Part shown: piece after piece, positions 5,178 to 28,121 of the stretch | Numbering within the stretch: position 1 is the first letter of the stretch | How the letters are laid out: each line of letters starts with the position of its first letter | Origin: an uncultured Gemmataceae bacterium | GTDB taxonomy: Bacteria > Planctomycetota > Planctomycetia > Gemmatales > Gemmataceae | DNA length: 64,000 nucleotides | NCBI GenBank assembly: GCA_963804745.1 | Contig: CAWDRY010000012.1 | Location: 30,562 to 94,561, forward strand | Reading direction: 5' to 3' | Made by a program: the position numbers and the translations under genes | The notes under the pieces: model-generated | The model's input: only the letters and a program-made list of their open reading frames with translations | Databases searched by the model: none | What the model was told of the DNA's origin: nothing

Positions 5178-5323
5178 TTAACTTCTCGCCCTTCTTCCCT
5201 CTCCATCTTTCCCGCTCTTTCCCCATCCTCCCGAAGTGTCCAGGCGAACCAAAACTGATACCTCTCTCAAACACCCTGATTTCTTTGCCGAAAGAACTTC
5301 CACTTTTCTTGCATCTGTGTTAT

Positions 5324-5425
5324 GGCGTGCGGCAAGTGATACCATCCCTCGCTCACGCTTCGGGCTAGTCTCACACTGGCCCGAAGCGTGAGCGAGGGAT
5401 GGTAAATCATCTTCTACCGCTCGCC
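5324..5425. repeat. palindromic MITE/REP-like element, copy B (X-left, Y-right)
   Basis: near-perfect long hairpin ggcgtgcggcaagtgataccatccctcgctcacgcttcgggc...gcccgaagcgtgagcgagggatggtaaatcatcttctaccgctcgcc. Confidence 0.85.
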
Positions 5426-5474
5426 TATCCGTGTAATCTGTGGTCAAAGGTCCAGGTTAAAGTTTTGTTTTCTC

Positions 5475-6569
5475 ATGAAATCTCACGATCACCCGCCGAG
5501 TGTTGTCTTGCGGTCCAGGCTATGCGTATTGTTGCTCGCCATCGCCCTCGTCGGGCTGACGGGTTGTCAGACGCTGCCTTCCGTTCGCCTTTGGAACCCC
5601 GTGGAAGTGCCTGCCGTTCGCGCTTGCGAGGTGCAACAGTTGCGCGACATCGTCTATTGCGACGGAGCGAAGGCAGATTCCTCTCGCCACCGTCTCGATC
5701 TGTATCTGCCCAGGGGAAGCAGGATTTCCCGGTCGTCGTGCTCGTTCACGGCGGCGCCTGGGTGATGGGCGACAATCGCTGTTGCGGGCTTTACACCAGC
5801 GTCGGGGAATATCTGGCCGGCCGGGGCATTGGCGTTGTCGTGCCCAACTACCGGTTGTCGCCGGGAGTGAAGCATCCCGAACATGTCAAGGACGTGGCCC
5901 GCGCGCTGGCCTGGACCCGGACTTTCATCGGCACCTTCGGCGGCTCGCCGGACAAGATCTTCCTCGCCGGCCATTCCGCCGGCGGGCATCTCGTCTCCCT
6001 GCTGGCGACGGATGATACCTACCTGAAGGCCGTGGGGCTGCGGACCCGCGACATCAAAGGCGTGATCTCAATCTGCGGCGTCTACCGCATTCCGGCGGGG
6101 AAGATGGAAGTCACCCTGGGCGGCGACAGCGAACGGGCCTTCCGGCTGAGCGAGATTTGTCCCATTCGCGGCACAGGCGATGCAGGCGGACCCAGGCCGG
6201 CCGTCTTGCCGGGCATTCCCGTGAGCCTCAACGTATTCGGCCCGGTTTTTGGCGAGGACCCGAAGGCGCGAGAGGCTGCCTCGCCCTTGAATTACGTTCG
6301 GCCCGGCCTGCCGCCGTTCCTTATTGTTTCGGCGGAGAATGACCTGCCCACTGTTGCAGGGATGGCGGAGGAGTTCCAGAAGGCCCTCGCGAAACAAGGG
6401 TGCGGGGCTTCAGCTCATCCGGATCGCGAATCGGAACCACAACAGCGTGATGTTCCGGGCGATTCAGGATGATGATCCGCTGGCCAGGGCGATGGTGGAG
6501 TTTGTCAGGCGGCGGAGCGGGGAAGAGCCGGGCGGAAGGAAACCGGGAGATGCGCGGGGCGGGCAGTGA
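5475..6569 (+). CDS. alpha/beta-hydrolase fold esterase/lipase (Abhydrolase_3-like) lipoprotein; two apparent frameshifts (~5715 in GGGG run, ~6405)
   Basis: signal peptide + lipobox LTGC; DLYLP...VVVLVHGGAWVMGD (HGG oxyanion motif), GHSAGGHL (GxSxG nucleophile elbow); C-terminus continues in ORF 6324..6569. Confidence 0.7.
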
Positions 6570-9700: not shown

Positions 9701-12700
9701 GCCACTGACCACTGACCACCGACCACTGACTACCGACCACGGCAGTGAAAGTGATTGCCTGGCCCGCCGCCGCTGGATTGAGCGACGAAGTCGCGACAGT
9801 GCTCGTGCTCGCCTGATCGACGGTCTCGTACACGGCAGCCGAAGTGCTCCCCAAGGAATTGACATCGCCGCCATAAACACTCCTCAACACGTGCTGGCCG
9901 ACACTAAGACTGCTGACCGCAAAGATGGCTGTCCCGCTAGTGTCCAGCGTCCCATAACACAATACCGTGCTGCCATCCAGGAACGTCACGCTGCCTGTTG
10001 GAATGATGCCTACACTCCCGTTCACGGTCGTTGTGAAACTCGCGCTTTGGCCGAAGATAGAAGTGTTGACAGATGGGAAGGCCGTGGTGATGGTCGTTTG
10101 CTGGATCGCTTGAATCAAGGCCGCCGAGGTGTTGCCGAGGAAGTTGCCGTCCCCGCCGTACACCACCGTGATGCTGTAACTATCAACAGCCAGGACAGTA
10201 CTCAGATGGAAGGTGGCGATGCCAGCGTTCAGCGTCACCGTGCTCCTGCCTGGCAGCGGGTCCCCATCCCCCAGGAAGGTGACCGTGCCTGTCGGCGTGC
10301 CAGCACCCGGAGAGGCGGCACTTATGGTGGCGGTAAACGTGATGGATCGACCAAAGCCGGATGGGTTGACCGGCGATGTCAGAGTCACGGTAGTGCTGGC
10401 TGGGTTGACTGTTTGAGGTAGTGGATTCGACGTGCTCCAGCCCAGGTTCGTATCGCCGCCGTAGATCGCCGTTAGGGTGTGGGCCCCTGCCGACAGTGTT
10501 GCGGTGCTGAAGCTGGCCGTGTCGCCGCCAACGGCAACGGTGCCGATGGAAGTGCTGCCGTCCATGAACGTCATTGTCCCCGTTGGCGTGCCCGCCCCGG
10601 GTGTACTGGCAGCAATCGTGGCCGTGAATGTCACGCTCTGACCGTAAAGGGATGGATTTACCGGCGAAGTCACGGCTGTGGTCGTGGTGGCCTTGGCTTG
10701 AATGACCGTTTGCACCGTGCTGCCGCTGCTGCTGTTGAAGTTTGCATCCCCGCCGTAAGTCGCTGTGATGCTGTGTACACCCACGGCCAATGAGGACGTC
10801 GCATAGGTCGCCATCCCACCACTCAGGGTAACTACACCGCCGGATAGCACAGCCCGTTCTCCATGAATGTCACTGTGCCGGTCGGCGTGCCGGTGCCCGG
10901 ACTGACGGCGCTCACCGTTGCCGTAAAGGTCACGCTCTGGCCGAGGACCGACTGATTGGCCGGCGCACTGACCGTGGTGCTCGTGCCGGCCTGGTTGACC
11001 GTCTGCAAGAAGTCGCCCAACGTGCTGTCGTTGAAGTATCTGTCGCCGCCGTAGATAGCAGTGATGGTGTGCGTCGCCACCGTCAGGCTGCTGGATGTGA
11101 ACGTCGCCGTGCCGCCTTGCCCCTCTCCCCCTGGGAGAGGGGTTGGGGTGAGGGTACCCGTACCGATGGAGCTGCCGCCCTCCTCGAACGTGACCGTACC
11201 TGTCGGTGCCCCCCCGCCGGGACTGACGGGACTGACCGTGGCCGTGAACGTCACCGGCTGGCCGAATACCGATGGGTTGACTGACGAGGTCACTGTCGTG
11301 GTTGTGGCTGTCTGTGCGGGCACTTGTGTCTGGTAGGCGCCGATGTCGGGGTTGCGGATTGGCCGGGGCTGGCCGCGCTGGTCGGTCGTGAGGCCGTTTT
11401 GCGCCGGCACCGATGGCGGGACTGCCCGGCAGCAAGGCCATCGTCGCTGTCGGCCCTCCATTGTTTGCCAGAGGACCAAGCAAGGGATCAATCGCGTTCG
11501 GGTCGGAGCCGGTCACCCCAACTTGATTGTGGTTGCCATCACCGTTCCTGATGCCAGTCAGGCCGGTGCCGTCGCCGATCAGGTTATAGGCGCGTAGCGC
11601 TGGTGACGCTGCCGGCAATGTCCGGATCACTGATGGTCACTGTGTTGCCGGCCACAATGGTGCTGAGCAGCGTTACCGTATCCGAATTGCCGATGCCGCC
11701 GCCATACGCAGCAGAGTTGCCGGCCAGGGTAGAGTTGCTCACCGTCACCGTGCCAGCGGCATTGAAAATGCCGCCGCCGTCCCATACGGCGGAGTTGTCG
11801 GCGAGGGTACAGTTGCTCACCGCCCCCGTGCCATTGTTGTAGATGCCGCCGCCGTAGCCGTGGGCGGCGTTACCGTAGAGGGTGCTGTTGCTCACCATCA
11901 CCGTGCCACCGAGATCGTTGCAGATGCCGCCGCCGCTCCCTTGGGCGGAGTTGCCGGACAGAGTGCAGGTGCTCACCGTCACCGGGCCATTCCTGTTGTA
12001 AATGCCGCCGCCGCTCCCTTGGGCGGAGTTGCCGGACAGAGTGCAGGTGCTCACCGTCAGCGTGCTCCAATTCCAGTAGTTGCCTACATCGATGCCGCCG
12101 CCGCTACTTTGGGCGGAGTTGCCGGAGAGAATACAGTTGCTCACCGTCACCGGGCCACCGTAGCTGAAGATGCCGCCGCCGCCGCCGCCGCCGCCCCAAT
12201 AATTAGGATAAGCGCTGTTGCCGGAGAGGGTGCAGTTGCTCACCGTCAGCGGGCCATAATTGCAGATGCCGCCGCCATTGCCGCCGTTGGATGCGGAGTT
12301 GCCGGAGAGGATGCAGTTGCTCACCGTCAGCGTGTTCCAGTTGGCCATGTCGATGCCGCCGCCATCGCCGTTGAATGCGGAGTTGCCGGACAGGGTGCAG
12401 GTGCTCACCGTCACCGGGCCACTGTTGTTGTAGATGCCGCCGCCGCTGTATGCGGAGTTGCCGGACAGGGTGCAGGTGCTCACCGTCAGCGGGCTATTGT
12501 TGTAGATGCCGCCGCCGTTGCCGTTGGAGGCGGAGTTGCCGGAGAACATGCAGTTGCTCACCGTCACCGGGCCACCGTTGTTGTAGATGCCGCCGCCGTT
12601 GTAGTATGCGGAGTTGCTGGACAGGGTGGTGTTGCTCACCGTCACCGTGCCATAATTGCAGATGCCGCCGCCGTAGGATGCAGAGTTGCCCGACAGGGTG

Positions 12701-15700
12701 GTGTTGCTCACCCACAGCATGCCACTATTGTAGATGCCGCCGCCGTAGGATGCGGAGTTGCCCGACAGGGTGGTGTTGCTCACCCACAGCATACCACTAT
12801 TGTAGATGCCGCCGCCGTAGGATGCGGAGTTGTCGGACAGGCTGCAATTGCTCACCGTCAGCGTGCCATTGTTGAGGATGCCGCCGCCTGCACCGGGGGT
12901 GGATCCATTGCTGATGGTCAGGTTTTCCAGGGTGGCGGTGGTGTTCGCTGCCACCGTGAAGAGCAAGGAGTTCCACCCGCGGCCGCCGCCCTGGATGGTC
13001 AAAGCGGCTGTCGGGCCAGCAATGATGATCGACGCGCCGAGGGTGGCGTTGTCGAGGTTCAGTGCGCCTGCGGGCGCGATCGTCTGCGGCGTGGCGAAAA
13101 CCACGGGGTCGAAGGAAATGGTGAAGAGGCCGCCGTTGCCGTCGTTGTCCGCCTGGGCCACCGCATAGGACAGGCTGCCTGGTCCCGAGCTATTGATGTT
13201 CGTAACGATGTAGTAACCGGGGACCGCCGGGGCGATAGTGAACGACTGATCGACGGGGGCGGCGGCGCTGTAGTCGATGCTGCCCGCCTGCACCGCCACG
13301 ACGGTGACCACCGTCCCTGCCGGCGTGGCGCCGAGGATGGTGATTGTGTTGCCGGAGATGCTGGCATACTGCCCGCCCGCCACAATGCGGAAGCTGACCG
13401 CCAGGCCCGAGCTGGCGCTGGCGCTCACCGTAAACGGTGCGTTGCCATAGATCTGGTTGGCCAGCGGCCCGAAGCTGATCGTCTGCCTGACCGCGGTCTG
13501 ATAGGCGCCGATGTCCGGGCTGCCGGCCGGCCGGGGCTGGCCGCGCTGGTCGGTGGTGATGCCGTTAACGATCTCGCCGGCGCCGATTGCAGGGCTGCCC
13601 GGCAGCAAGGCCATCGTAGCCGTCGGCCCGCTGTTATTTTGCAAAGGGCCAAGCAGGGGATCGATCGGGTTGGGGTCTGAGCCGGTCACCCCGACTTGAT
13701 TGTGGTTGCCATCGCCGTTGCTGATGCCGGACAGGCCGGTGCCGTCGCCGATAAGGTTATAGGCACTGCTTCCCGTGATGATGCCGTAAATGTCCGGCTC
13801 ACTGACGGTGTTGCCCGCCACGATGGTACTGAACAATGTCACCGTCCCGGCGGCAGTGCCGATGCCGCCGCCGTTACCTTGGGCGGTGTTGCCGGACAGC
13901 GTGGAGCTGCTTACCGTCACCGTGCCGTCTTGGTTCCAAATGCCGCCGCCGTTACCCTGGACGGAGTTGCCGGCGACGGTGCAGTTGCTCACCGCCAGCG
14001 TGCCGTCGTTCCAAAGGCCGCCGCCGTTACCCTGGGCCGAGTTGCCGGCGACGGTGCAATTGCTCACCGCCAGCGTGCCGTCGTTCCAGATGCCGCCGCC
14101 GCTGCTGCTCGTGTACCCATTACTGATGGTCAGGTTTTCCAGGGTCGCGGTTGTGTTCGCGGCCACCGTGAAGACCGAGAAGTTCGACCCGCTGCCGCCG
14201 CCCAGGATGGTCAGAGCAGACTGCCGGGCCGGCAATGAGCACCGAAACGCCGGGCGTGCTGTTGTCGAGGTTCAGCGTGCCTGCCAACGTTATCGTCTGC
14301 GCCGTGGCGAAAACCGTTGCATCGAAGTTGATGGTGAAGAGTTCCCCCCTGGTGTCGTTGTCCGCCTGTTCGACCGCGTAAGGCAGGCTGCCGAGCACCG
14401 TGCTGTCGTTGCTGGTATTGGTGACGGTGTAGGCCGGTGTCTGATAGGCGCCGATGTCGGGATGGCTGCTTGACCGAGCATGGCCGCACTGGTCGGTCGT
14501 GAGGCCGTTTTGCGCCGGCGCCGATGGCGGGACTGCCCGGCAGCAAGGCCATCGTCGCCGTCGGCCCACCATTGTTTGCCAGAGGACCAAGCAGGGGATC
14601 TATCGGGTTCGGGTCTGAGCCGGTCACCCCAACTTGATTGTGGTTGCCATCGCCGTTGCTGATGCCGGTCAGGCCGGTGCCGTCGCCGATCAGGTTATAG
14701 GCGCGAGCGCTGGTGACGCTGCCGGCAATGTCCGGATCACTGATGGTCACTGTGTTGCCGGCCACAATGGTGCTGAGCAGCGTTACCGTATCCGAATTGC
14801 CGATGCCGCCGCCATACGCAGCAGAGTTGCCGGCCAGGGTAGAGTTGCTCACCGTCACCGTGCCAGCGGCATTGAAAATGCCGCCGCCGTCCCATACGGC
14901 GGAGTTGTCGGCAAGGGTACAGTTGCTCACCGCCCCCGTGCCATTGTTGTAGATGCCGCCGCCGTAGCCGTGGGCGGCGTTACCGTAGAGGGTGCTGTTG
15001 CTCACCATCACCGTGCCACCGAGATCGTTGCAGATGCCGCCGCCGCTCCCTTGGGCGGAGTTGCCGGACAGAGTGCAGGTGCTCACCGTCACCGGGCCAT
15101 TCCTGTTGTAAATGCCGCCGCCGCTCCCTTGGGCGGAGTTGCCGGACAGAGTGCAGGTGCTCACCGTCAGCGTGCTCCAATTCCAGTAGTTGCCTACATC
15201 AATGCCGCCGCCGCTACTTTGGGCGGAGTTGCCGGAGAGAATACAGTTGCTCACCGTCACCGGGCCACCGTAGCTGAAGATGCCGCCGCCGCCGCCGCCG
15301 CCGCCCCAATAATTAGGATAGGCGCTGTTGCCGGAGAGGGTGCAGTTGCTCACCGTCAGCGGGCCATAATTGCAGATGCCGCCGCCATTGCCGCCGTTGG
15401 ATGCGGAGTTGCCGGAGAGGATGCAGTTGCTCACCGTCAGCGTGTTCCAGTTGGCCATGTCGATGCCGCCGCCATCGCCGTTGAATGCGGAGTTGCCGGA
15501 CAGGGTGCAGGTGCTCACCGTCAGCGGGCCACTGTTGTTGTAGATGCCGCCGCCGCTGTATGCGGAGTTGCCGGACAGGGTGCAGGTGCTCACCGTCAGC
15601 GGGCTATTGTTGTAGATGCCGCCGCCGTTGCCGTTGGAGGCGGAGTTGCCGGAGAACATGCAGTTGCTCACCGTCACCGGGCCACCGTTGTTGTAGATGC

Positions 15701-18700
15701 CGCCGCCGTTGTAGTATGCGGAGTTGCTGGACAGGGTGGTGTTGCTCACCGTCACCGTGCCATAATTGCAGATGCCGCCGCCGTAGGATGCAGAGTTGCC
15801 CGACAGGGTGGTGTTGCTCACCCACAGCATGCCACTATTGTAGATGCCGCCGCCGTAGGATGCGGAGTTGCCCGACAGGGTGGTGTTGCTCACCCACAGC
15901 ATACCACTATTGTAGATGCCGCCGCCGTAGGATGCGGAGTTGTCGGACAGGCTGCAATTGCTCACCGTCAGCGTGCCATTGTTGAGGATGCCGCCGCCTG
16001 CACCGGGGGTGGATCCATTGCTGATGGTCAGGTTTTCCAGGGTGGCGGTGGTGTTCGCTGCCACCATGAAGACCGAGGAGTTCCACCCGTGGCCGCCGCC
16101 CTGGATGGTCAAAGCGGCTGTCGGGCCAGCAATGATGATCGACGCGCCGAGGGTGGAGTTGTTGAGGTTCAGTACGCCTGCGGGCGCGATTGTCTGCGGC
16201 GTGGCGAAAATCACGGGGTCGAAGGAAATGGTGAAGAGGCCGCCGTTGCCGTCGTTGTCCGCCTGGGCCACCGCATAGGACAGGCTGCCTGGTCCCGAGC
16301 TATTGATGTTCGTAACGATGTAGTAACCGGGGACCGCCGGGGCGATAGTGAACGACTGATCGACGGGGGCGGCGGCGCTGTAGTCGATGCTGCCCGCCTG
16401 CACCGCCACGACGGTGACCACCGTCCCTGCCGGCGTGGCGCCGAGGATGGTGATTGTGTTGCCGGAGATGCTGGCATACTGCCCGCCCACCACAATGCTG
16501 AAGCTGACCGGCAGGCCCGAGCTGGCGCTGGCGCTCACCGTAAACGGTGCATTGCCGTAGGTCTGGTTGGCCAGCGGCCCGAAGCTGATCGTCTGGTTGG
16601 TCTCGCTCTGGTAGGCGCCGATGTCGGGGTTGCCGGCCGGCCGGGGCTGGCCGCGCTGGTCGGTGGTGTTGCCGGCAACGACCTTGCCGGCACCGATCGC
16701 AGGGCTGCCCGGCAGCAAGGCCATCGTAGCCGTCGGCCCGCTGTTATTTTGCAAAGGGCCAAGCAGGGGATCGATCGGGTTGGGGTCTGAGCCGGTCACC
16801 CCGACTTGATTGTGGTTGCCATCGCCGTTGCTGATGCCGGACAGGCCGGTGCCGTCGCCGATAAGGTTATAGGCACTGCTGCCCGTGATGATGCCGTAAA
16901 TGTCCGGCTCACTGACGGTGTTGCCCGCCACGATGGTACTGAACAATGTCACCGTCCCGGCGGCAGTGCCGATGCCGCCGCCGTTACCTTGGGCGGTGTT
17001 GCCGGACAGCGTGGAGCTGCTTACCGTCACCGTGCCGTCTTGGTTCCAAATGCCGCCGCCGTTACCCTGGACGGAGTTGCCGGCGACGGTGCAGTTGCTC
17101 ACCGCCAGCGTGCCGTCGTTCCAAAGGCCGCCGCCGTTACCCTGGGCCGAGTTGCCGGCGACGGTGCAATTGCTCACCGCCAGCGTGCCGTCGTTCCAGA
17201 TGCCGCCGCCGTTGCTGCTCGTATGCCCGTTGCTGATGGTCAGGTTTTCCAGGGTGGCGGTTGTGTTCATGGCCACCGTGAAGACCGAGAAGTTCGACCC
17301 GCTACCGCCGCCCAGGATGGTCAGAGCAACTGCCGGGCCGGCAATGAGGACCGAAGCGCCGGGCGTGCTGTTGTCGAGGTTTAGCGTGCCTGCCAGCGCG
17401 ATCGTCTGCGCTGTGGCGAAAACCGTTGCATCGAAGTTGATGGTGAAGAGTTCCCCCCTGGTGTCGTTGTCCGCCTGTTCGACCGCGTAAGGCAGGCTGC
17501 CGAGCACCGTGCTGTCGTTGCTGGTATTGGTGACGGTGTAGGCCGGTGTCTGATAGGCGCCGATGTCGGGATGGCTGCTTGACCGAGCATGGCCGCACTG
17601 GTCGGTCGTGAGGCCGTTTTGCGCCGGCGCCGATGGCGGGACTGCCCGGCAGCAAGGCCATCGTCGCCGTCGGCCCACCATTGTTTGCCAGAGGACCAAG
17701 CAGGGGATCGATCGGGTTCGGGTCTGAGCCGGTCACCCCAACTTGATTGTGGTTGCCATCGCCGTTGCTGATGCCGGCCAGGCCGGTGCTGTCGCCGATC
17801 AGGTTATAGGCGCTATTGCTGGTGACGCTGCCGGCAATGTCCGGATCACTGATGGTCACTGTGTTGCCGGCCACAATGGTGCTGAGCAGCGTTACCGTAT
17901 CCGAATTGCCGATGCCGCCGCCATACGCAGCAGAGTTGCCGGCCAGGGTAGAGTTGCTCACCGTCACCGTGCCAGCGGCATTGAAAATGCCGCCGCCGTC
18001 CCATACGGCGGAGTTGTCGGCGAGGGTACAGTTGCTCACCGCCCCCGTGCCATTGTTGTAGATGCCGCCGCCGTAGCCGTGGGCGGCGTTACCGTAGAGG
18101 GTGCTGTTGCTCACCATCACCGTGCCACCGAGATCGTTGCAGATGCCGCCGCCGCTCCCTTGGGCGGAGTTGCCGGACAGAGTGCAGGTGCTCACCGTCA
18201 CCGGGCCATTCCTGTTGTAAATGCCGCCGCCGCTCCCTTGGGCGGAGTTGCCGGACAGAGTGCAGGTGCTCACCGTCAGCGTGCTCCAATTCCAGTAGTT
18301 GCCTACATCGATGCCGCCGCCGCTACTTTGGGCGGAGTTGCCGGAGAGAATACAGTTGCTCACCGTCACCGGGCCACCGTAGCTGAAGATGCCGCCGCCG
18401 CCGCCGCCGCCCCAATAATTAGGATAAGCGCTGTTGCCGGAGAGGGTGCAGTTGCTCACCGTCAGCGGGCCATAATTGCAGATGCCGCCGCCATTGCCGC
18501 CGTTGGATGCGGAGTTGCCGGAGAGGATGCAGTTGCTCACCGTCAGCGTGTTCCAGTTGGCCATGTCGATGCCGCCGCCATCGCCGTTGAATGCGGAGTT
18601 GCCGGACAGGGTGCAGGTGCTCACCGTCACCGGGCCACTGTTGTTGTAGATGCCGCCGCCGCTGTATGCGGAGTTGCCGGACAGGGTGCAGGTGCTCACC

Positions 18701-21630
18701 GTCAGCGGGCTATTGTTGTAGATGCCGCCGCCGTTGCCGTTGGAGGCGGAGTTGCCGGAGAACATGCAGTTGCTCACCGTCACCGGGCCACCGTTGTTGT
18801 AGATGCCGCCGCCGTTGTAGTATGCGGAGTTGCTGGACAGGGTGGTGTTGCTCACCGTCACCGTGCCATAATTGCAGATGCCGCCGCCGTAGGATGCAGA
18901 GTTGCCCGACAGGGTGGTGTTGCTCACCCACAGCATGCCACTATTGTAGATGCCGCCGCCGTAGGATGCGGAGTTGCCCGACAGGGTGGTGTTGCTCACC
19001 CACAGCATACCACTATTGTAGATGCCGCCGCCGTAGGATGCGGAGTTGTCGGACAGGCTGCAATTGCTCACCGTCAGCGTGCCATTGTTGAGGATGCCGC
19101 CGCCTGCACCGGGGGTGGATCCATTGCTGATGGTCAGGTTTTCCAGGGTGGCGGTGGTGTTCGCTGCCACCATGAAGACCGAGGAGTTCCACCCGTGGCC
19201 GCCGCCCTGGATGGTCAAAGCGGCTGTCGGGCCAGCAATGATGATCGACGCGCCGAGGGTGGAGTTGTTGAGGTTCAGTACGCCTGCGGGCGCGATTGTC
19301 TGCGGCGTGGCGAAAATCACGGGGTCGAAGAAAATGGTGAACGGGCCGCTGCTGGTGTTGTTGTCTGCCTGGGCCAGCGCATAGGGCAGGCTGCCGATCA
19401 CCGTGTTGTCGTTGCTGGTATTGGTGACAGTGTAGAACTGGGCCTGGCTGACCATTTGCACAAAGCTGCCGCTGCTGCTTACACAATTGCCGTCGCCGCC
19501 GTAGACTGCCGTTATCGTGTGGTAGCCGGCCGTCAAGCTGCTGGTCATGAATGTGGCCGTGCCGTTGCTGTCCAGAGTGACCATGCCGTTGCTCAGTGGG
19601 AAGCCCCCGTCCTCGAACATGACCGTGCCCGTCGGCGTGCCGGCGCCCGGCGAGGTGACACTGACCGTGGCGGTAAAGCTCACACTCTGCCCGAACACCG
19701 AGGGACTGGCAGATGAAGTCACCGTTGTCGTCGTGCTCGCCGGGTTCACGGTCTGGGTGAGAGTGTCTGAGGTGCTGGCCGTGAAGTTGCCGTCGCCGCC
19801 GTAAGTCGCCGTGATCGTATGAACGCCAACGGTAAACATAGACGTGGCGAAGGTGGCCGCTACCCCGCCGCTGACTGCTCCCGTGCCCACGGAGGTGCCG
19901 CCGTCCTGGAACGTCACTATCCCCGTCGGCCACTGGCCACTGACCACTGACCACTGACCACTGCATGTGGCCGTGAAAGTCACGCCCTGGCCGAACACCA
20001 ACGGGTTGGTCGAAGAATTCACCGTGGTGGTGGTGCTCGCCTGGTTGACGGTCTGGACGGTGCTGCCGCTGCTGACGCAGTAGGTGCTGTCGCCGCCGTA
20101 GCTGGCCGTGACGGTGTGGGTGCCGGCACTCAGAGTCGAGATGGGGAAGGAAGCAGTGGCAATGGCGCCGCTGCCGCTCAATGTGCTTTGCCCAAGCGAC
20201 GTGCTGCCGTCGCTGAAGGTCACCGTGCCGCTAGGCGTCTCGGACTGGTTCCCGGTGACGGTGGCGCTGAATGTGACAACATCGCCTAAGATTGACGTAC
20301 TGGAAGACGATGTCACCGTGGTGGTAGCGGTGCCGCCCGTGACGGTCTGTAGGAAGGTGCCCGAGGCGGGGCTGGCGCTGAAGTTGGTGTCGCCGCCGTA
20401 GCTGGCCGTGATGGTATGCGTGCCAATCGACAGCGCCGTGGTCGAGAACGTCGCCGTGGTGCCGCTGATCGAACTCGTGCCGATGGAGCTGCCGCCGTCG
20501 CTGAAGGTCACCGTGCCGGTTGCGCCGGTGGGCGAACTGTGGACCGTGGCCATGAACGTCACCGTCGAGCCGTAGACTGGGGAACTGGGCGTCGCCGCCG
20601 TCACCGTGGTCGTGGTGCTCGCCTGGTTGACGGTCTGGAGGAAGGTGCCGGTGGTGCTGCTGGCGGCGTAGTTGGTCCCGCCGCCGTAGGTCGCGGTGAG
20701 CGAGTGGGTGCCGGCGGCCAGGCTGCTGGTCGTAAATGTGGCGATGCCGCGGCCGGTGCCGCTGCCGTCGTCGGTCACATTGGCGAATCCCAGGGTGGTG
20801 GCGCCGTCCATAAACATCACGCCGCCGTCGATCGTGTTGCTGGCGCCGCCTTGCACGGTTGCGGTGATGGTCACAGGCTCGCCGAAGGCCGTCGGTCCCG
20901 ACGAAGTCACGGTGGTGGTCGATGCGATCGTTCCGGGAGTCAGCACGATCAGGGTGCCGTCCACCACGTCACCGGCGGTATCGTTGGGAGGGGGATCCAG
21001 CGTGTACACATCCCCTGAGCTAATGCCATATGCCTTCGTGGGAAGGCTTTGGTTGAGGGACAGCGGGACGCTCGCTCGCAAGTTGATGATACTGTGCCCT
21101 GCAGACTGCAGGTTGGTAAAGGCAATGTCCAGCAGATCGATGGTTTGATCCGAATTGTCCAAACCGGTGAAAGAAAATGCGTCGACGGCGATTGTGCCTA
21201 CTAGACCCGGCAACAGAGTATTGTTGGGGACGATGTTCCCGGCGTAAGTGAACCCGGGGGACAGCGGTTCCTTGAAAGCTACTGCCTGTTCGTTCGAGAC
21301 AGTTGTCGCCACAAACAGCTGCGTGGGATCGTAACTCATGGCGATGTCAAACTCGCCCAGGGTAGCCGCGCCGATGGCGGCCAAGCCCACGCTGACAGGC
21401 ACTGTTTGGAACTGAAAAGCATGGAACGGTCGGACGGCGACAAACATTTCTCCCGTTGACGACGGCGTGAGGCGCTCCTCGAACGGCTCGACGGACAGCC
21501 AGCAGCGCCGGCGCTCGGTCTTGCGGCGGCCGCGATGCTTGCGCCAGCGCCTCCAGGACCAAGTGTTCAATTCGACCATTTGCACCAGGTTTTGCCACCA
21601 ACGAAAAAATGTCATAATGCGGCTCCTCAA
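6706..21630 (-). CDS. giant (~4,900 aa if contiguous) secreted adhesin-like protein fragmented into 6 overlapping ORFs by frameshifts: N-terminal Planctomycete leader, 3 cohesin-like modules, dockerin-like repeats, many Big_3-like Ig domains, PbH1 parallel beta-helix repeat arrays, choice-of-anchor-Q-like domains
   Basis: ORFs 17302..21630, 14211..17699, 11584..14235, 9444..11630, 8168..9676, 6706..8706 all minus strand, overlapping, with domain continuity; N-term ...RRRCWLSVEPFEERLTPS; SGNSAxxGGGIYN repeats; YNLIGDGTGLxGISNGDGNHNQVGVTGSDPNPIDPLLGPLxNNxGPTATMALLPGSPAIGAG; GDVSGDNVLTGLDALQIAREAVG dockerin-like; AISYDTSRLEILSAGDIQPG cohesin-like. Confidence 0.6.
7302..7370. repeat. in-frame SSR (CACCACTCACCACTC)x4 within giant gene, encodes (GVVSG)n
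   Basis: read directly; same GGTGAGT/ACTCACC heptamer family as intergenic palindromes. Confidence 0.8.
7606..7652. repeat. in-frame SSR (GACCTCT)x6.5 within giant gene
   Basis: read directly: ctgacctctgacctctgacctctgacctctgacctctgcc. Confidence 0.8.
11335..19440. repeat. near-identical tandem duplication, unit ~3106-3110 bp, ~2.6 copies (boundaries ~11335/14445/17554/19440) inside the giant gene
   Basis: spurious +strand ORFs recur at 11603/14713/17822, 12375/15485/18591 etc. with identical translations; offsets 3110, 3109, 3106. Confidence 0.85.
12171..12194. repeat. (GCC)8 trinucleotide SSR encoding poly-Gly in beta-helix module; copies at 15282-15305 (x8) and 18391-18411 (x7)
   Basis: read directly; copy 3 is one unit shorter. 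Confidence 0.8.
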
Positions 21631-21840
21631 TACTCAGGGGGAAAGTCGATAGTACGGAATAGGAAAGAAAGAACTGGCATCCTGCTCGTCCGCAGTCATT
21701 AGAAACCCGGTTTCTGTTAGTCCACTGCGGAGCCAACGCGCCAAAACCCGGCGTTCCGGCAACTGATCCTTCAATTCTCCGCTCGGGTAAACGAGAGAGG
21801 CGCGGCCCTCTGCGGAATCGGTTCGCCCCAAGCGTGTAAC

Positions 21841-22100
21841 AGGAAAGAAACGGCCGGTTTTAGCAAGGGACTCCCCCGCCGCCGCACGCCGCCGAACCCG
21901 GTGACCGAACCAGCACTGGTAAAGCTGACGAAACCAGGTGGGAATCATCGCTGCCTGCCTTTGCGAAGCAGAATGCGCGAACCAGATACCCGTTGGCGGG
22001 GCTGGACAGTGTGCATCCAGAAGGGGGGAATCGCCGTTCCCCGGAATGGGTTATCGGCCGCCATCCCTGGCTGGCCGCCGACTTGGGGTTAATGGTAAGC
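21841..22100. repeat. ~255-bp direct repeat, copy 1 (left flank of Rpn-like gene)
   Basis: ~90% identical to 23510..23775. Confidence 0.8.
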
Positions 22101-22171
22101 GAAACAGAGGGAAAGTCAATGAGAGATGTGCTAGAATAGGCTCAGATCAAGAAACGTTCGCGGAGGTGCCG

Positions 22172-23128
22172 ATGGCGGATTTCGACAGCCCTTGGAAGGA
22201 AGCTCTCGATGTTTATTTCCGGGCCTTTCTGGCCTTCTTCTTTCCCTTGATCCATGATGATATTGACTGGTCGCGGGGTTTCGAAATGCTCGACAAGGAA
22301 CTCCAGCAGATCACGCCGAAAGGTTCGCAGGGCCGCCGTCACGTGGACAAGCTGGTGAAGGTCTGGCGCAAGAACGGCTGCGAAGTTTGGGTGTTGATCC
22401 ACATCGAGGTGCAGACGCGGCGGGAACGCGGCTTTGCCCTGCGGATGTACGAGTACAATTACCGTATTTTCGACCGCTATCATCGAACAGTGGTTAGCCT
22501 GGCGGTGCTTGCGGATGACAATCCGGACTGGCGGCCGAACAGCTACGAGAATGAGCTATGGGGTTGGTCGATCCGTATGACTTTTCCGCCCGTGAAGTTG
22601 CTTGATTACGCCAACCGCGAGGCCGAGTTGGAAGCGGACAGCAACCCGTTCGCCAAGGTCGTGCTGGCGCACCTGAAAGCACTGATGACACGGCGTGATC
22701 CCGATGAACGGCGGGCATGGAAGTTCCGCCTCGTGCGCGGCCTCTACGAGCGCGGCTTCAAGGCCGACGATGTGCGGCAGCTGTTCCGCCTGATCGACTG
22801 GCTGATGGAGTTGCCGCCGCCGTTGGAAGATCGACTCTGGAAAGATATCATAAAGTACCAGGAGGAACGACGCATGCCATTCGTGACAACACCGGAGAGA
22901 TATGGAATCAGGATGGGGATGCTGCAGATGATCGAGGATACCCTGCGCATCAAGTTCGGCGAAGAAGGGGTCGGGTTAATAGCTGAGATCGAGGCCCTCC
23001 ACGACGCGGAGAAGATGCGAGCCATCCACCGCGTTCTCGTCACGGCAGATAACCTCGACGAGGTACGTGGTGCGTGTGCCGAGGCCGCCGCACCTGCCAA
23101 GCGCCGTTCTCGTTGGCGCTCAACGTAA
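22172..23128 (+). CDS. Rpn-family recombination-promoting nuclease / putative transposase (PD-(D/E)XK, YhgA/transposase_31-like)
   Basis: MADFDSPWKEALDVYFRAFLAFFFP...VWVLIHIEVQTRRERGFALRMYEYNYRI (D...E-V-Q core), C-terminal DUF4351-like helical region. Confidence 0.7.
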   Translation: MADFDSPWKEALDVYFRAFLAFFFPLIHDDIDWSRGFEMLDKELQQITPKGSQGRRHVDKLVKVWRKNGCEVWVLIHIEVQTRRERGFALRMYEYNYRIFDRYHRTVVSLAVLADDNPDWRPNSYENELWGWSIRMTFPPVKLLDYANREAELEADSNPFAKVVLAHLKALMTRRDPDERRAWKFRLVRGLYERGFKADDVRQLFRLIDWLMELPPPLEDRLWKDIIKYQEERRMPFVTTPERYGIRMGMLQMIEDTLRIKFGEEGVGLIAEIEALHDAEKMRAIHRVLVTADNLDEVRGACAEAAAPAKRRSRWRST

Positions 23129-23509
23129 ACCAGTCGAACGCCAATGCCCAGACTACAGACTGTCTGCGTACCGGGGATGAGAATCTAACGCTGTCCAGAA
23201 GAGCACCAGCGGTACACTTTCGGTAGCTACTGAAGGTTGAGAATCCGTCCTGTGATCAACGGTCACGGTACGAGCCGCAACTTCCCTCCGCCCCGGCTAT
23301 CTGCATGGTCCCTCCATCGCCTCAACCATTCCAACCAACTTGGGGAGAACATGGTGTGAACCCTCAACATTGCGTCACAGAAGCATCACAGGAACAGGAG
23401 CGAACCACTGGCGACGACAGCTTGCCGGCGCCGCGCGCAGCAAGGCGAGAAGCCGATTCCGGCCATTCTCACAGGCGCAGGAACATCAATTCGTAAACCA
23501 ACCCGGCCA

Positions 23510-23775
23510 GGAAAGAAAGGGCGGTTGTGACAATGGACTCCCCCGCCGCCGCGCGCCGCCGAACCCGGTGACCGAACCAGCGCTGGTGAAGATGACGAAA
23601 CCAGGTGGGAATCATCGCTGCCTGCCTTTGCGAAGCAGAATGCGCGAACCAGATACCCGTTGGCGGGGCTGGACAGTGTGCATCCAGAAGGGGGGATCGC
23701 CGTTCCCCGGAATGGCTTATCGGCCGCCATCCCTGGCCGGCCACAGACTTGGGGTTAATGGTAAGCGAAACAGAG
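23510..23775. repeat. ~255-bp direct repeat, copy 2 (right flank of Rpn-like gene)
   Basis: ccgccgccgcgcgccgccgaacccggtgaccgaacc...ggttaatggtaagcgaaacagaggga shared with copy 1. Confidence 0.8.
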
Positions 23776-24049
23776 GGATAGTCAAGGGTCCGGGGCCGTT
23801 CTCCCTTTTTCTCCCCCCAAACCACCCCAAAACCGGTCAGAATCCCCTCAAAAGCCCGAAGAAAAGCCGTCGAATTGGCAACAACCGGCAACGTTGTGGC
23901 AACGGGACCACTCATCACCGGCCTGTACAGATTACTCAGTAGCCTCTTTCCTCTCATCCTCCGTGATACGTTTCACCCTCCGTGAATACATCTCAGGGGG
24001 TATGTCACAAGAAGTGAGAACAAACGCCCGCATCCAGCCTCTTAACGAT

Positions 24050-26045
24050 GTCCCCGGCCGTAAATAACCGTCCAACAGGGATCGATGGCAGGTGGAAATA
24101 GGGGTAGGGAGCCTGCCTCCGGCAGGCTCCCGAGTCGATCAGGATGGGGTCGTGGGGCACAACCCGGCGTCGACGGGTTTCGGGGCGACCGAACTGCGCA
24201 GGCGTTCGCGTTCCTGAGGTGTCATGTTCCAGGGCAGGTAGCATTGCGGCTCGGGCGGCGGCCGGCCCCCAGCTTTCGCACAGTCCGACAGGTAGGCCGT
24301 GAGCCATTTGGCAACGTCCATGTCCCAAAGCTGAACCGTTTGAAACAGCGAGAACAGCATGGCTGCCAAGCGTCCGCTCCACAACGATCCCGAGCCGTAG
24401 AAGTTCTTGCGGGCAATCACCGGGCCGCGCTGCCGGCGCTCGGCTTCGTTATTGTCCATCGGCACTTCGGGATGATCCACAAACACTGTCAGGCCGGTCC
24501 AGTGTTCTTTCAGGCTGTTGAGCGCTTTGCGTTGCGGGGGCCGCAACTTCGGTTGCGTCAATTCCTCGTCACAACGCTGCCGCATGTGTTCCACTTGTTG
24601 ACGCACGAATTGGTCAGCCTCGGCATAGGCGGTGGCGTTGGCGGTGACGGCCAGGCGCTGGTCATTGAGCTGGTACAAAGTGCCGATGGCTTCAACCCAT
24701 GACCAGGCCCAGTCGGTCAGCTCCGACCAACCGGTCAGCACCTCGAGGAAGTCGCGGCGCACATGGGCCCAGCAAAACGACAGGATGATTTTCCCCGCCT
24801 TGACCTGGGCCATGGCCTTGTAGGCGCTGTAGCGATCGACGTTCATGATGCCTTTGGCACCGTCGCCCAAGTGTCCTTCGGGAACCTCGTGGGAACGCGT
24901 TGGATCGAGCACGAACACGACCGACTCTGGGGCGGCGAAGACCCAGAGCTGCCACACGAAATTGGCTTTGTTCGGCTGCTTGACGAAGATGGGCCAGCGG
25001 GTTTCGTCGCCATGCCAATGGTTTTCGCCGCGATTGTGTTCGGCGAGGAGTACGTAGAGCGGCTCAAAGAGCGGCACGAGTTTATGCAGGCCGTCGGTGA
25101 TGGTGCCGGCGGCCAAATCAAGCCCATAGCTGCGTAATTCGGCGAGGACACGGTACAGCGGCTGGAAGAATTCGAACTTGTGCTGCAGGATCAGCACCCA
25201 GATGGAAATGCCGATGGCGCTTTTGCGAATGAGTTTGTCGGGTGGCGGAGCCGTGACCACAAGCGGTTGCTTGGGGCAGTTGCAGCGCCGGCGATAACGG
25301 CGGCGCTGATAGCGGCGGCGATGGGCACGCACTTCAATTTCGAGGATGTTGCCGTCGGTGGTGCCGGCAATCTCCTCAAACGGTTGGCCGCAAGCGGGAC
25401 AACATTTTTGCTCGTCGGGCAATGAGCAGTCTTCATGGCTGGTGGGCAGATGATCGTGCTGGCGTCGGCCGTGGCCTTGGCTGCCGCGCTGTTGGCCGCG
25501 TGGCCGCCGCTGCTGGTTGGTAGGCGCGGTCTTACCCTGCGCCGGCTTCGTCGCAGATGAGGTTTCGGATTTGCGGCCGAAGAGCCGACGTTTCAACTCG
25601 CGGATTTCGCCTTGCAGCAGTTGGTTCTGTTCCGCCAACGCCACTTCGCGCTGCCGGGCGCGTTGATGTTGGGCCTGCCAATAGTTGGCCTGCCAACGCA
25701 GATCGACGAGTTGCCGCCGCAAACGGTAGACGGTCACCAGAGCGAGCAAAAAGAGCCAAGCGAGCATACAAAAACGCTGCCACAACCAGGCCGCCGGGTC
25801 AGGTTGCGAATCTTCCTGGAAGTCGGCGTCGAGGACGATGGCCGGGGAGGCCGGAACCAGCACTCCTTGCTGAGCCGGAAGAGGAACCAGAGGATAGAAA
25901 GCGTTGGCATCCATGCTCCTCAATCGTAGGCAGCCAACCAGCCGCGGATTCAGCGAATGTCAAAAAAACCGCGGATCAAGGCAATAAACCAGGCAAACTT
26001 TACGCCCAGCGGACCCCGTTGGTCGAATGTTTACCCCCGGCCCGA
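24050..26045 (-). mobile_element. IS66-family insertion sequence (single-ORF ISBst12-like organisation, no tnpA/tnpB)
   Basis: imperfect terminal IRs ccggccgtaaataaccgtccaacagggatcg (24054-24084) vs rc of cggaccccgttggtcgaatgtttacccccgg (26010-26040); internal TnpC. Confidence 0.7.
24139..25923 (-). CDS. tnpC: IS66 family transposase TnpC
   Basis: N-terminal leucine zipper/coiled coil, CPACG zinc finger, DDE core (HGDETRWP...), C-terminal NNEAERRQRGPVIARKNFYGSGS. Confidence 0.85.
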   Translation of the reverse strand: MRSMDANAFYPLVPLPAQQGVLVPASPAIVLDADFQEDSQPDPAAWLWQRFCMLAWLFLLALVTVYRLRRQLVDLRWQANYWQAQHQRARQREVALAEQNQLLQGEIRELKRRLFGRKSETSSATKPAQGKTAPTNQQRRPRGQQRGSQGHGRRQHDHLPTSHEDCSLPDEQKCCPACGQPFEEIAGTTDGNILEIEVRAHRRRYQRRRYRRRCNCPKQPLVVTAPPPDKLIRKSAIGISIWVLILQHKFEFFQPLYRVLAELRSYGLDLAAGTITDGLHKLVPLFEPLYVLLAEHNRGENHWHGDETRWPIFVKQPNKANFVWQLWVFAAPESVVFVLDPTRSHEVPEGHLGDGAKGIMNVDRYSAYKAMAQVKAGKIILSFCWAHVRRDFLEVLTGWSELTDWAWSWVEAIGTLYQLNDQRLAVTANATAYAEADQFVRQQVEHMRQRCDEELTQPKLRPPQRKALNSLKEHWTGLTVFVDHPEVPMDNNEAERRQRGPVIARKNFYGSGSLWSGRLAAMLFSLFQTVQLWDMDVAKWLTAYLSDCAKAGGRPPPEPQCYLPWNMTPQERERLRSSVAPKPVDAGLCPTTPS

Positions 26046-26280
26046 TGCAAGTACCCAACTTCGCTGACCTTACGGCCACTGCACATCATCCAGCCACGCC
26101 GGAACTTTCATCTCACCCTCAAAGCCTGGGGACATGCAATGAGAAATACATTGTGCCGCACTCTCCTGCCTAACATCCTCCTCACAACCAAGTTGGACAA
26201 ATAGATTCTTCACCTTTATCCTTCAGGTTGGGCGAGCCGAGCAGCGTAAGCTGCCGGGTGATGAACCCCATCATCTACTC

Positions 26281-27539
26281 ATGAAAGGCATTCCCATGGA
26301 CCCCATCACCATCCGTTACACCTTCCGTCCACGCCAGCGCAGCCTGGCAACCGGCCGGGTTGCCGACCTGTTCGGCGTCGATTTCGACGAGCCGCCGCAT
26401 CTTGTTGCCGACAACGTGCTACTCGACATCCGGCCCGGCGATCTCGTGCTGTTCACCGGCCCGTCCGGCAGCGGCAAATCATCGCTGCTCCGCGCCGCCG
26501 GCAAGCAACTCGGCGCCTTCGACGCCGCCTCTCTCTCCTTGCCGGACCTGCCGCTCGTCGATTGCCTGTCCGGCTCGCTGGAAGAACGGCTCGCCAAACT
26601 CTCGGCATGCGGTCTTTCCGAAGCCCGCCTGCTCCTGCGCAGCCCCGACGAACTCTCCGACGGCCAACGCTACCGTTTCCGCCTCGCCTACGCCCTGGAC
26701 CAACTGCCCACTGCCCACTGCCAACTCCCCACTGACCACTCCCCACTCACCACTCCTCACTTCCTGATGGCCGACGAGTTTGCCGCCTTTCTGGACCGCA
26801 CTCTGGCAAAGGTCCTGGCCTTCAATGTCCGCAAGTTGTGCTCGCGCAGCGGTGTCAGTTTCCTGCTGGCGACCACGCACGACGATCTGCTCGACGACCT
26901 CAATCCCGACGTGTGCGTGTACTGCCACGGCGACGGGCAGGTGGCATGTCAGCGGCGCGACGTAAAAAAAAAGACATCTCGTTTGTGCATGACCTTTGGC
27001 TGTCGGAAGGCGCCCGCGCCGATTGGCCGTACTTCGCTCGGTGGCATTACCGCAGCCATCAGCTCGCCTACGTCCGCCGGATCGTCCTGCTCTGGCACGG
27101 CGACGAGCCGATCGGCATCTGCGTCTTTAGCGCCGGCGGCGGCGCTGAAACTGCGGACTCGCTATTTTGGTCTTCACAATCCCCATTCGAGCCTGCACCT
27201 CTCGGCCCTCAATCGGCAACTCTGGCTGCTGTTGCGCGTCGTCCTGCATCCCACCTATCGCGGTGCGGGGATTGCGACGGCCTTTGTGCGGCGGGCGTGT
27301 GCGACGTGTCCGGTGGACTGGATCGAGACGCTGTCGGCGATGGGGCAGGTCAATCCTTTCTTCGAGCGCACGGCTTTACGCGCGTCGGCGTCATTCGCAG
27401 AGAGCGAAAGAATAACCGGGGCCGGTCGTATGGCGCGATCTACGGCGGGCACGATGTGCGTGTCAGCGCCGAGACGGTCCGGAAGAGCCGGTACAGCGAG
27501 CCGGTGTATTATGTGATGGATAATCGGCAGAAAGGATGA
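26281..27539 (+). CDS. soluble ABC-type ATPase domain fused to C-terminal GNAT-like acetyltransferase domain; frame broken at least three times (A9 run at 26964-26972, ~27150, ~27370)
   Basis: Walker A GPSGSGKSS, signature LSDGQRYRFRLAYAL, Walker B LMADEFAAFLD, H-loop LATTHD; GNAT motif A RVVLHPTYRGAGIATAFVRRA and motif B NPFFERAGFTRVG in alternating frames; embedded heptamer SSR 26700-26760. Confidence 0.55.
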
Positions 27540-27712
27540 AGGATGAAGGATGAAGGATGAATCGGAAAGGATGAGCGGTCACTGGCCCGAAGCGTTACCG
27601 AGGCAGGATTTACCCTCGCTAACGCTTCGGGCCAGTGTTCAAACTCGTTCCCACGGTCCGCCGTGGGAACGAGAGGAAGTCTTCATCTCATCCTTCATCC
27701 TTCATCCTTTCT
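27520..27712. repeat. composite palindrome between convergent genes: outer (GGATGAA)n/(TTCATCC)n arms, inner rearranged MITE core hairpin (cactggcccgaagcg...cgcttcgggccagtg) plus 13-bp-stem hairpin ctcgttcccacgg/ccgtgggaacgag
   Basis: read directly at 27530-27715. Confidence 0.75.
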
Positions 27713-28121
27713 TAAGAAGCTCTAACACTGGAACAACGTTGACAGTACCGAACTGGCGGAAGTGATCGTCGAAAGCAAACGCACATTGGATGCCAAGGCG
27801 ATCCATGACTACCCGGCTGACACAGTCGGTGAAACTCCACTTCTTATCGTGAAACCGGCGGAACACCTGCCAGGCAGCTCGGACGTCCGCCGTCGAGATC
27901 CATTCGAGACGAGAGATCGATTCGTCCAGAAGATTTTCGCCGATATGGAAAGCGCGGGAGAACTCACGCCGCATCTTGAGAAGCGTCAGCAACTCGTCCA
28001 GGACGTAATCGGTCGTCAATAGCTGTTCTGAATTTTGGGTCAACCAGGTGTGGGCTGCAAGATGATTGGGATCGTTGGGCACAAAGGCTGCAAACCACGC
28101 ACTTGTATCAACAAAGATCAC
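27702..28121 (-). CDS. vapC: type II toxin VapC (PIN domain)
   Basis: IFVDTSAWFA..., TDYVLDEL, SFTDCVS, AFDDHF PIN acidic residues. Confidence 0.85.
   Translation of the reverse strand: MIFVDTSAWFAAFVPNDPNHLAAHTWLTQNSEQLLTTDYVLDELLTLLKMRREFSRAFHIGENLLDESISRLEWISTADVRAAWQVFRRFHDKKWSFTDCVSRVVMDRLGIQCAFAFDDHFRQFGTVNVVPVLELLKKG

Follow-up and report, generated by a model that had tools for sequence, protein, structure and literature searches.

A direct repeat around a divergent Rpn-like gene in a Gemmataceae bacterium as a possible scar of local duplication

The stretch of DNA analysed here, the window, comprises 64,000 nucleotides of one contig from an uncultured Gemmataceae bacterium. It carries a gene for an Rpn-like protein that lies between two copies of a direct repeat (R), with giant adhesin-like genes on its left and an IS66-family element on its right. 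The features of this locus are the following.

17302 to 21615, minus strand: first in a series of giant adhesin-like genes, with Big_3_5 and PMP repeats; start codon ATG at 21615, with GAGGAG ahead of it
21635 to 21671, no strand: J0, a match resembling the end of R (14 of 16 positions) and a match resembling its start (11 of 12), separated by 9 nt; R1 follows after 168 nt
21840 to 22119, no strand: R1, a non-coding copy of the direct repeat (280 nt), between the divergently oriented adhesin-like and rpn-like genes
21926 to 22028 in R1, equal to 23593 to 23695 in R2, no strand: identical core of R, 103 nt (alignment columns 87-189)
22092 to 22119, and 23758 to 23785 in R2, minus strand: sigma-70-like site, TTGACT-16-TACCAT, at the right-hand edge of R and directed towards the adhesin-like gene; a consensus match only (9 of 12)
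22129 to 22137, plus strand: extended -10-like TGCTAGAAT, read from the sequence just right of R1 and outside the repeat; possibly the promoter of the rpn-like gene
22172 to 23128, plus strand: gene for an Rpn/YhgA-like PD-(D/E)XK protein of 318 aa whose C-terminal helical domain is of the DUF4351 type
22860 to 23128, plus strand: putative internal translation start, with a ribosome-binding site AGGAGG at 22860-22865 and an ATG at 22874 (codon 235), for an 84-aa RpnS-like C-terminal protein
23508 to 23785, no strand: R2, the second copy of the direct repeat (278 nt), 1667-1668 nt downstream of R1
24060 to 26034, minus strand: IS66-family insertion sequence with a single transposase open reading frame at 24139-25923 (Pfam DDE_Tnp_IS66, E 3.6e-54)

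By sequence comparison, the product of 22172-23128 is a divergent Rpn/YhgA-like PD-(D/E)XK protein, in agreement with the first-pass annotation, which had recognised such a gene between the repeats. The catalytic residues D59, E79, Q81 and R91 do not vary among 44 diverse members of the family and align with D63, E82, Q84 and R94 of RpnA (hhalign; E 0.0033 against the single RpnA sequence), four positions for which mutant phenotypes are reported in PMC5350276. Against the Pfam model Transposase_31 (PF04754), the window protein scores 12.2 bits (E 0.14), under the cut-off of 21. Of 24 family members, 8 give a match to this model with an E-value of 1 or less (the lowest 6e-4); of 44 in a broader sample, 15 do so with an E-value of 0.01 or less (the lowest 1.4e-5), and 7 match DUF4351. 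The window protein is best described as a distant relative of PF04754 and not as a member under Pfam's rule. The gene is present once in the window, and its locus matched none of the PADLOC models.

Several properties are shared with the Rpn proteins of E. coli (PF04754 Transposase_31, COG5464; RpnL/RpnS gene-within-gene toxin-antitoxin, antiphage). These are a D, an E-x-Q and an R at equivalent positions, a single gene in scattered and unrelated contexts, and a separate C-terminal helical domain at whose beginning an internal start codon and ribosome-binding site are found, here as sequence signals. Direct duplications nearby, with inverted repeats and target duplications absent, are a further likeness. 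The window protein differs in lying under the Pfam threshold, in its DUF4351-type C-terminal domain, in a nuclease or toxicity role that is predicted, and in belonging to a very large family (more than 6200 homologues; 9049 representative clusters) whose named sources are Gemmataceae. The number of four-residue repeats in Rpn C-terminal domains has been described as variable.

Codon 235 is ATG or GTG in all six genes examined, with a purine-rich hexamer resembling a ribosome-binding site about 8 nt upstream. Free-standing duplicated open reading frames at two homologue loci, L013 and L009, begin at the methionine equivalent to this codon. A conserved internal start and free-standing C-terminal duplicates fit the RpnL/RpnS toxin-antitoxin design, and the gene is predicted to be a single-gene, horizontally moving Rpn-like nuclease and probably a toxin, with an antitoxin that would be made from the internal start.

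Five homologue loci for which DNA was available (L001, L002, L008, L009 and L013) were compared with the window. At each of them the gene stands alone amid housekeeping genes, and neither R nor any other repeat bracketing the gene was found at any of the five; the family as a whole occurs in many unrelated genomic contexts. In the two closest homologues with gene maps, the upstream gaps are 109 and 148 nt, leaving no room for R. Direct duplications of another kind were seen: in L013, a 301-nt segment at the 3' end of the gene is repeated directly downstream with 89% identity, and L009 has repeats of 487 and 288 nt with 82% and 77% identity, indicating that old direct repeats persist in such genomes. 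The protein collections contain no relatives closer than about 75-78% identity, and no allele with an empty site or a full tandem was retrieved. The best homologue of the neighbouring ABC ATPase, followed up for an empty site, is 78% identical and too distant for a comparison of intergenic regions.

BLASTN aligns R1 (21840-22119) with R2 (23508-23785) over 280 columns, of which 264 are identical (94.3%; E 7e-122). The 16 differing columns consist of 14 substitutions and two 1-nt gaps, both within short homopolymer runs. The copies share one orientation, are spaced by 1667-1668 nt and have sharp boundaries; R1 lies 225-504 nt upstream of the adhesin-like gene, and BLASTN together with a repeat search found two copies only in the 64 kb. 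The direct repeats reported by the first-pass annotation are real, and their extents and identity (21841-22100 and 23510-23775, about 90%) are corrected by this alignment. Likewise, GGTTAATGGTAAGCGAAACAGAGGGA, which had been taken for their common end, occurs in R1 (22087-22112) and R2 (23753-23778), and similarity continues for 7 nt beyond it, to ...AGTCAA.

The differences are unevenly spread along R, as an identical run of 103 nt has a probability of 0.008 under permutation of the 16 differing columns. This core may reflect gene conversion between the copies, or constraint through selection acting on both of them. A 12-mer is found three times inside R, with spacings of 24 and 48 nt, and could form a set of protein-binding sites.

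R lacks terminal inverted repeats, since its left end (CAGGAAAGAAA...) does not return in inverted form at its right end (...GGGAAAGTCAA). No target duplication was found outside R1 and R2, whose flanks GCGTGTAA and GGGTCCGG have nothing in common. The neighbouring IS66 element conforms to the single-ORF members of its family in its DDE_Tnp_IS66 transposase, in its inverted ends starting GTAA and in its 8-bp target duplication; it differs in standing apart from the repeat structure. Its imperfect inverted ends start with GTAAA and match at 22 of 36 positions, and CCCCGGCC is duplicated at 24052-24059 and 26035-26042 (read from the sequence and checked by script). Its start at 24060 lies exactly 275 nt past R2, the distance at which the element had been placed before. 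As this target duplication is intact, the repeat boundary at 23785 was not made by the IS66 element, which is a later, unrelated simple insertion. A GTAAGCG within R was considered as an IS66 end and rejected, the true ends being 24060 and 26034 with their own 8-bp duplication. The variable region in which R lies also contains an insertion sequence and a PIN-domain gene.

A proposal that the repeat is a duplicated structured RNA was not supported. Rfam 15 at the gathering threshold gave no match anywhere in the 64-kb window, and at E up to 10 the interval 21500-24100 returned two chance snoRNA matches only; ARAGORN found no tRNA or tmRNA. An integration-target RNA (tRNA, tmRNA or other) was accordingly rejected as the identity of R. 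On both strands, R folds no better than shuffled sequences (z-scores from +1.7 to -0.65), the 103-nt core shows no excess of folding stability, and no compensatory paired changes between R1 and R2 and no terminator at the left end of R were detected. The internal hairpin GGGGAATCGCCGTTCCCC cited in favour of an RNA does exist at 22025-22042 in R1; in R2 (23692-23708) it has lost 1 nt.

R was also rejected as coding sequence. A minus-strand frame is open across R1, but it is shifted in R2 by a 1-nt gap, and nearly all substitutions, judged by eye, alter the amino acid; in six frames, no protein homologue of R was found among 5.8 billion proteins. A diversity-generating retroelement was discarded as well: the 14 substitutions are mixed in type (7 transitions) and not adenine-specific, and no reverse-transcriptase gene was seen among the open reading frames and domains examined near the repeats.

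Searches for R beyond the window gave no extended match. Two 20-mers of the core yielded three matches of 20-22 nt in a 596 Gb genome collection, none of which extends, two matches without extension in a metagenome collection and none in a viral collection. As these scans demanded exact matches and the collections apparently hold no close relative of this organism, these negatives are weak. Plasmid BLAST gave no match to R, and about 45 kb of other contigs from metagenome sample ERZ26871208, which may be the window's own sample, contained no copies. Cumulatively, these comparisons provide useful negative results: 1) R is no conserved partner of the rpn-like gene; 2) it is no recognisable RNA; and 3) it is no transposon end. 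The earlier suggestion that repeats and gene could form a mobile or recombinogenic unit is not supported, given no R at the five loci, upstream gaps of 109-148 nt, and the lack of inverted ends and target duplication.

How did R come to stand on both sides of the gene? The explanation we prefer, to which we would give about an even chance, is that R1 and R2 are the leftover of a truncated tandem-type direct duplication of the upstream region and the rpn-like gene. A segment of about 1.67 kb, comprising part of the divergent upstream region (R), the rpn-like gene and its 3' flank, would have been duplicated, and a later deletion would have shortened the second unit to its first 278 nt (R2). The copies would then have diverged by about 5%, while the central 103 nt may have been kept or made identical via gene conversion. 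We infer that duplication came first, truncation second and conversion last. The edges of R would then correspond to a duplication joint (23507/23508) and a deletion joint (23785/23786), and R would be neither a working part of the gene nor a transposon end.

As in a tandem duplication, R2 begins at the end of the unit, the spacing of 1667-1668 nt equals the unit length and mobile-element signatures are absent. The identical core (P = 0.008) is an expected outcome of gene conversion between direct repeats. Published observations on rpn loci point the same way: rpn genes have no inverted repeats or target duplications, the ends of rpn regions vary between genomes, and genomic regions duplicated directly in tandem give rise to rpn arrays (Zhong et al. 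2023, PMC10400941). The window resembles those tandem duplications in a direct repeat that includes rpn-associated sequence and has arbitrary end points. It differs from them in keeping the first 278 nt only of the second unit and in a duplicated part that is non-coding and upstream, whereas L009 and L013 duplicate the 3' end of the gene. Neither BLASTN nor tblastn found a remnant of a second gene copy or 3' flank to the right of 23785, so that the later deletion is assumed rather than seen. J0 (21635-21671) is not predicted by a duplication and counts against it; its local alignment score alone is not significant, and scores of the left flank against the repeat and cassette ends fall in the range of shuffles.

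On its right, R stops immediately ahead of the likely rpn-like promoter, TGCTAGAAT, which is absent from a consensus promoter scan because it has no -35. An insertion would also explain this edge. Here an rpn-like cassette (22120-23507) would have been inserted beside a single ancestral R and duplicated it, either through Campbell-type homologous recombination of a circular fragment of R plus the gene from a related strain, or by being joined to two nicks separated by 280 nt, with the gaps filled in afterwards. The cassette appears self-contained, the space between the repeats holding the reading frame and a 3' flank together with a ribosome-binding site and a likely extended -10; rpn genes enter and leave genomes singly (PMC10400941), in keeping with the many unrelated contexts of the family, and a divergence of about 5% is compatible with an incoming allele from a relative. 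In addition, RpnA cleavage products can prime template switching, according to PMC5350276. We nevertheless regard an insertion as unlikely: rpn genes were without flanking target duplications in the study of Zhong et al. (PMC10400941), a bracketing repeat is present in none of the five homologue loci, and a circular donor of R plus the gene is an extra assumption.

It is quite unlikely that R is a functional non-coding element in two copies, such as a minus-strand promoter or 5' leader of the adhesin-like operon, or a small RNA. On this reading R2 would drive transcription antisense to the rpn-like gene. Both copies end on the right with a minus-strand TTGACT-16-TACCAT, the sole sigma-70-like site in the scanned region from the rpn-like gene to the adhesin-like start codon, and the core of 103 nt is the same in both. 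However, this promoter match is to the consensus only, at 9 of 12 positions. The Rfam result, the folding z-scores (+1.7 to -0.65), the missing left-end terminator and compensatory changes, and the failure of two core 20-mers to find a true match in the 596 Gb of genomes or the metagenome collection argue against such an element.

Membership of R in a dispersed repeat family specific to this genome, for instance a non-autonomous mobile element of which two members flank the gene by chance, seems improbable to us. Genomes of the Gemmataceae type are large and rich in insertion sequences, an IS66 element lies 275 nt away, and the threefold 12-mer would suit a repeat of this kind; but two copies only are found in 64 kb and none in about 45 kb of the ERZ26871208 contigs, inverted ends and target duplications are lacking, and two copies in the same orientation around one gene would have to be a coincidence. 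Very improbable, in our judgement, is a more specific form of insertion, in which the 280-bp duplication would be the footprint of the entry of an Rpn-like cassette, through joining at widely spaced nicks or nick-primed template switching that copied the target on both sides. If true, the gene family would for the first time show a visible scar of its insertion, and the motif at 21635-21671 would be left over from a previous event of this kind. Finally, an artefact of long-read metagenome assembly is scarcely credible: related contigs bear names usual for polished nanopore assemblies and the 1-nt gaps lie in homopolymers, but the copies differ by 14 substitutions and have an intact gene between them, whereas artefactual duplications are normally near-identical.

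Most likely R is the scar of a rearrangement within a variable region, and has little importance of its own. The rpn-like gene belongs to a very large branch of Rpn-like proteins in which the catalytic residues are kept, yet the window protein falls under the Pfam threshold. As a side observation of modest value, this branch bears signs, read from its sequences, of a gene-within-gene antitoxin, and in some genomes the putative antitoxin part appears to have been duplicated into genes of its own.

By BLASTN and a repeat search, we confirmed that the rpn-like gene is flanked by a direct repeat (R), as the first-pass annotation had claimed, in a slightly longer and more similar form than first reported. 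The left copy (R1) and the right copy (R2) start 1667-1668 nt apart and are identical at 264/280 aligned columns (94.3%), with two gaps of 1 nt each, and the similarity extends 7 nt beyond the GGTTAATGGTAAGCGAAACAGAGGGA originally quoted. The 16 differences between the copies are clustered and leave columns 87-189 invariant, an identical run with P = 0.008 by permutation. The segment between the copies is not odd in composition relative to the window (60% G+C). A 12-mer occurs three times in the interior of R at 21902-21985 (TGACCGAACCAG, TGACGAAACCAG and TGCGCGAACCAG), the second and third copies each matching the first at 10/12 positions, with start-to-start spacings of 24 and 48 nt; this may have arisen by chance, or the copies may be protein-binding sites. 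The locus is laid out as follows.

21615, minus strand: ATG of the 1437-aa adhesin-like gene left of R1, preceded by GAGGAG
21840-22119: R1
22129-22137: candidate, likely extended -10 (TGCTAGAAT), right of R1
22162-22166: ribosome-binding site ahead of the rpn-like ORF
22172-23128, plus strand: rpn-like ORF, 318 aa
22860-22865 and 22874: AGGAGG and ATG of a putative internal start, the C-terminal part running to 23128
between the rpn-like ORF and R2: 379 nt of non-coding sequence
23508-23785: R2
24060-26034: IS66-family element, beginning 275 nt past R2
beyond the IS66-family element: ABC-type ATPase gene
27702-28121, minus strand: PIN-domain (VapC-like) gene, also beyond the IS66-family element

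The adhesin-like gene carries Big_3_5 and PMP repeats and heads a row of similar genes. This minus-strand row (6706-21615) consists of very large head-to-tail ORFs, two of which were scanned against Pfam and contain beta-helix, PMP and Ig-like (Big_3_5) repeats; the strand opposite the row has long spurious ORFs. On the other side, the IS66 call was right: the element has a single DDE_Tnp_IS66 ORF (E 3.6e-54), imperfect inverted ends starting GTAAA and an intact 8-bp duplication, CCCCGGCC. Because of these three features, it is a simple insertion separate from the repeat, and it did not make the repeat boundary. The ABC-type ATPase ORF (26281-27539 region) has 411 aa against about 270-290 aa in its homologues, some of which are annotated as 'ABC-type ATPase with predicted acetyltransferase domain', and is overlapped in a different frame by a second ORF (26838-27539), which may reflect a frameshift or two overlapping genes; its PADLOC match to mad3 is weak and covers the P-loop only. 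With the rpn-like gene, the IS66-family element and the PIN-domain gene, the stretch looks like a variable, accessory region.

The rpn-like protein of the window itself has no significant Pfam or NCBIfam match (Transposase_31, E 0.14). Its family is very large (more than 6200 matches in one search; 9049 representative clusters at 50% identity), with named members from Gemmataceae. In a set of 44 diverse members, Transposase_31 matches 15 (best E 1.4e-5) and DUF4351 matches the C-terminus of seven (best E 1.1e-19); D59, E79, Q81 and R91 are invariant. These residues align with D63, E82, Q84 and R94 of E. coli RpnA (hhalign, E 0.0033), where mutation of any one abolishes recombination promotion, and D63A, E82A and Q84K also lose toxicity and the SOS response (PMC5350276). 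We accept the window gene as encoding a distant Rpn-like PD-(D/E)XK protein that falls outside the family by Pfam's threshold. The first-pass call of an Rpn-type gene was right.

Each of the six family genes examined has a start codon (ATG or GTG) at codon 235 and, about 8 nt upstream of it, a purine-rich hexamer resembling a ribosome-binding site; this codon falls in a low-confidence linker that leads into the C-terminal helical domain. Exactly this C-terminal part is duplicated as 87-aa free-standing ORFs downstream in two homologue loci, L013 and L009, with the same starting Met and the upstream ribosome-binding-like sequence kept. The duplicated parts lie at 5016-5279 in L013 and at 5912-6391 and 6500-6763 in L009; two of them begin at that Met. 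The putative internal start would match the gene-within-gene design of the RpnL/RpnS toxin-antitoxin (Zhong et al., PMC10400941), and the duplicates suggest that a presumptive antitoxin part is sometimes amplified into separate genes.

We compared DNA around five homologues with 65-74% identity (L001, L002, L008, L009 and L013). The gene stands alone at these loci, next to neighbours including a sensor kinase, mnmG, ribosomal protein S21, a MacB-type transporter and RNase PH, and neither R nor any repeat bracketing the gene is present at any of the five. In the two closest of the homologues known by gene map only, the gap upstream of the gene measures 148 and 109 nt, which is too short for R. 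R is not a partner of the rpn-like gene, and the proposal that repeat and gene form a cassette unit finds no support, nor does a mobile-cassette reading, since R has neither inverted ends nor an outside target duplication. That a self-contained rpn cassette was inserted and duplicated a single ancestral R in the process, either through a circular fragment that recombined homologously or through joining at distant nicks, is unlikely.

R might instead supply the adhesin operon with its promoter and leader, or be a small RNA. The support for this is limited to the identical core of R1 and R2 and a minus-strand TTGACT-16-TACCAT match (9/12) at the right end of both, and we judge it quite improbable. 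The suggested duplicated structured RNA was likewise unsupported: Rfam gave no match in the whole window at gathering thresholds and two chance snoRNA matches at E up to 10, ARAGORN gave none, minimum free energies of the whole repeat and its core on both strands were no better than dinucleotide shuffles (z +1.74 to -0.65), and no compensated pair was seen between R1 and R2, a comparison of two sequences with little power. Joined as one query, the six frames of R had no homologues.

A dispersed repeat specific to this genome is very unlikely; self-comparison of 21400-26400 with the whole 64-kb window yields only two copies. In the genome and metagenome collections, exact 20-mers of the core matched nothing but unrelated DNA, and none of these matches extended past 20-23 nt; the viral collection gave no match, and neither did a plasmid BLAST. 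These collection negatives are weak, as the collections seem to lack a close relative of the organism; the neighbouring ATPase shares 78% identity with its best homologue. Duplication by assembly artefact is highly improbable.

A site at 21635-21671, which lies 168 nt to the left of R1 and shortly upstream of where the adhesin-like gene starts, matches the last bases of R at 14/16 positions, 9 nt from an 11/12 match to its first bases. Taken alone, the alignment scores do not stand out from those of shuffled sequence, but it is odd that the matches coincide with both boundaries of the repeat. Rearrangements may have made use of microhomologies here, or the site may be a regulatory motif that recurs. 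A degenerate pattern derived afterwards from such sites has four matches in the window, all within 21635-24006; as the pattern was devised after the fact, this count is no test.

Direct duplications are frequent beside genes of this family. In L013, a 301-nt segment spanning the gene's 3' end is repeated directly downstream (89% identity), and L009 has two repeated segments, one of 487 nt (82%) and one of 288 nt (77%). At L009 (4483-6769) the duplicates also enclose a minus-strand PIN / AF2212-like toxin-antitoxin pair (5103-5739), another small cassette between direct duplicates, placed between the gene's 3' end and its 487-nt duplicate, after which comes a third partial copy. These duplications match observations on rpn loci by Zhong et al. 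2023 (PMC10400941), in which neither inverted repeats nor target duplications accompany rpn genes, the rpn-carrying region has variable ends, and rpn arrays form when genomic regions undergo tandem direct duplication. The simplest reading, which we hold with about even confidence, is that a segment of about 1.67 kb comprising R, the gene and its 3' flank would have been duplicated in tandem, the second unit later cut off after its first 278 nt, and the middle of R1 and R2 held identical by gene conversion. The truncation is assumed rather than observed because R2 is followed on its right by no remnant of the gene. The edges of R would then be rearrangement joints, not functional boundaries. 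On this reading, the locus would be an ordinary rearrangement scar around what is new here, a distant member of the already known Rpn gene family.
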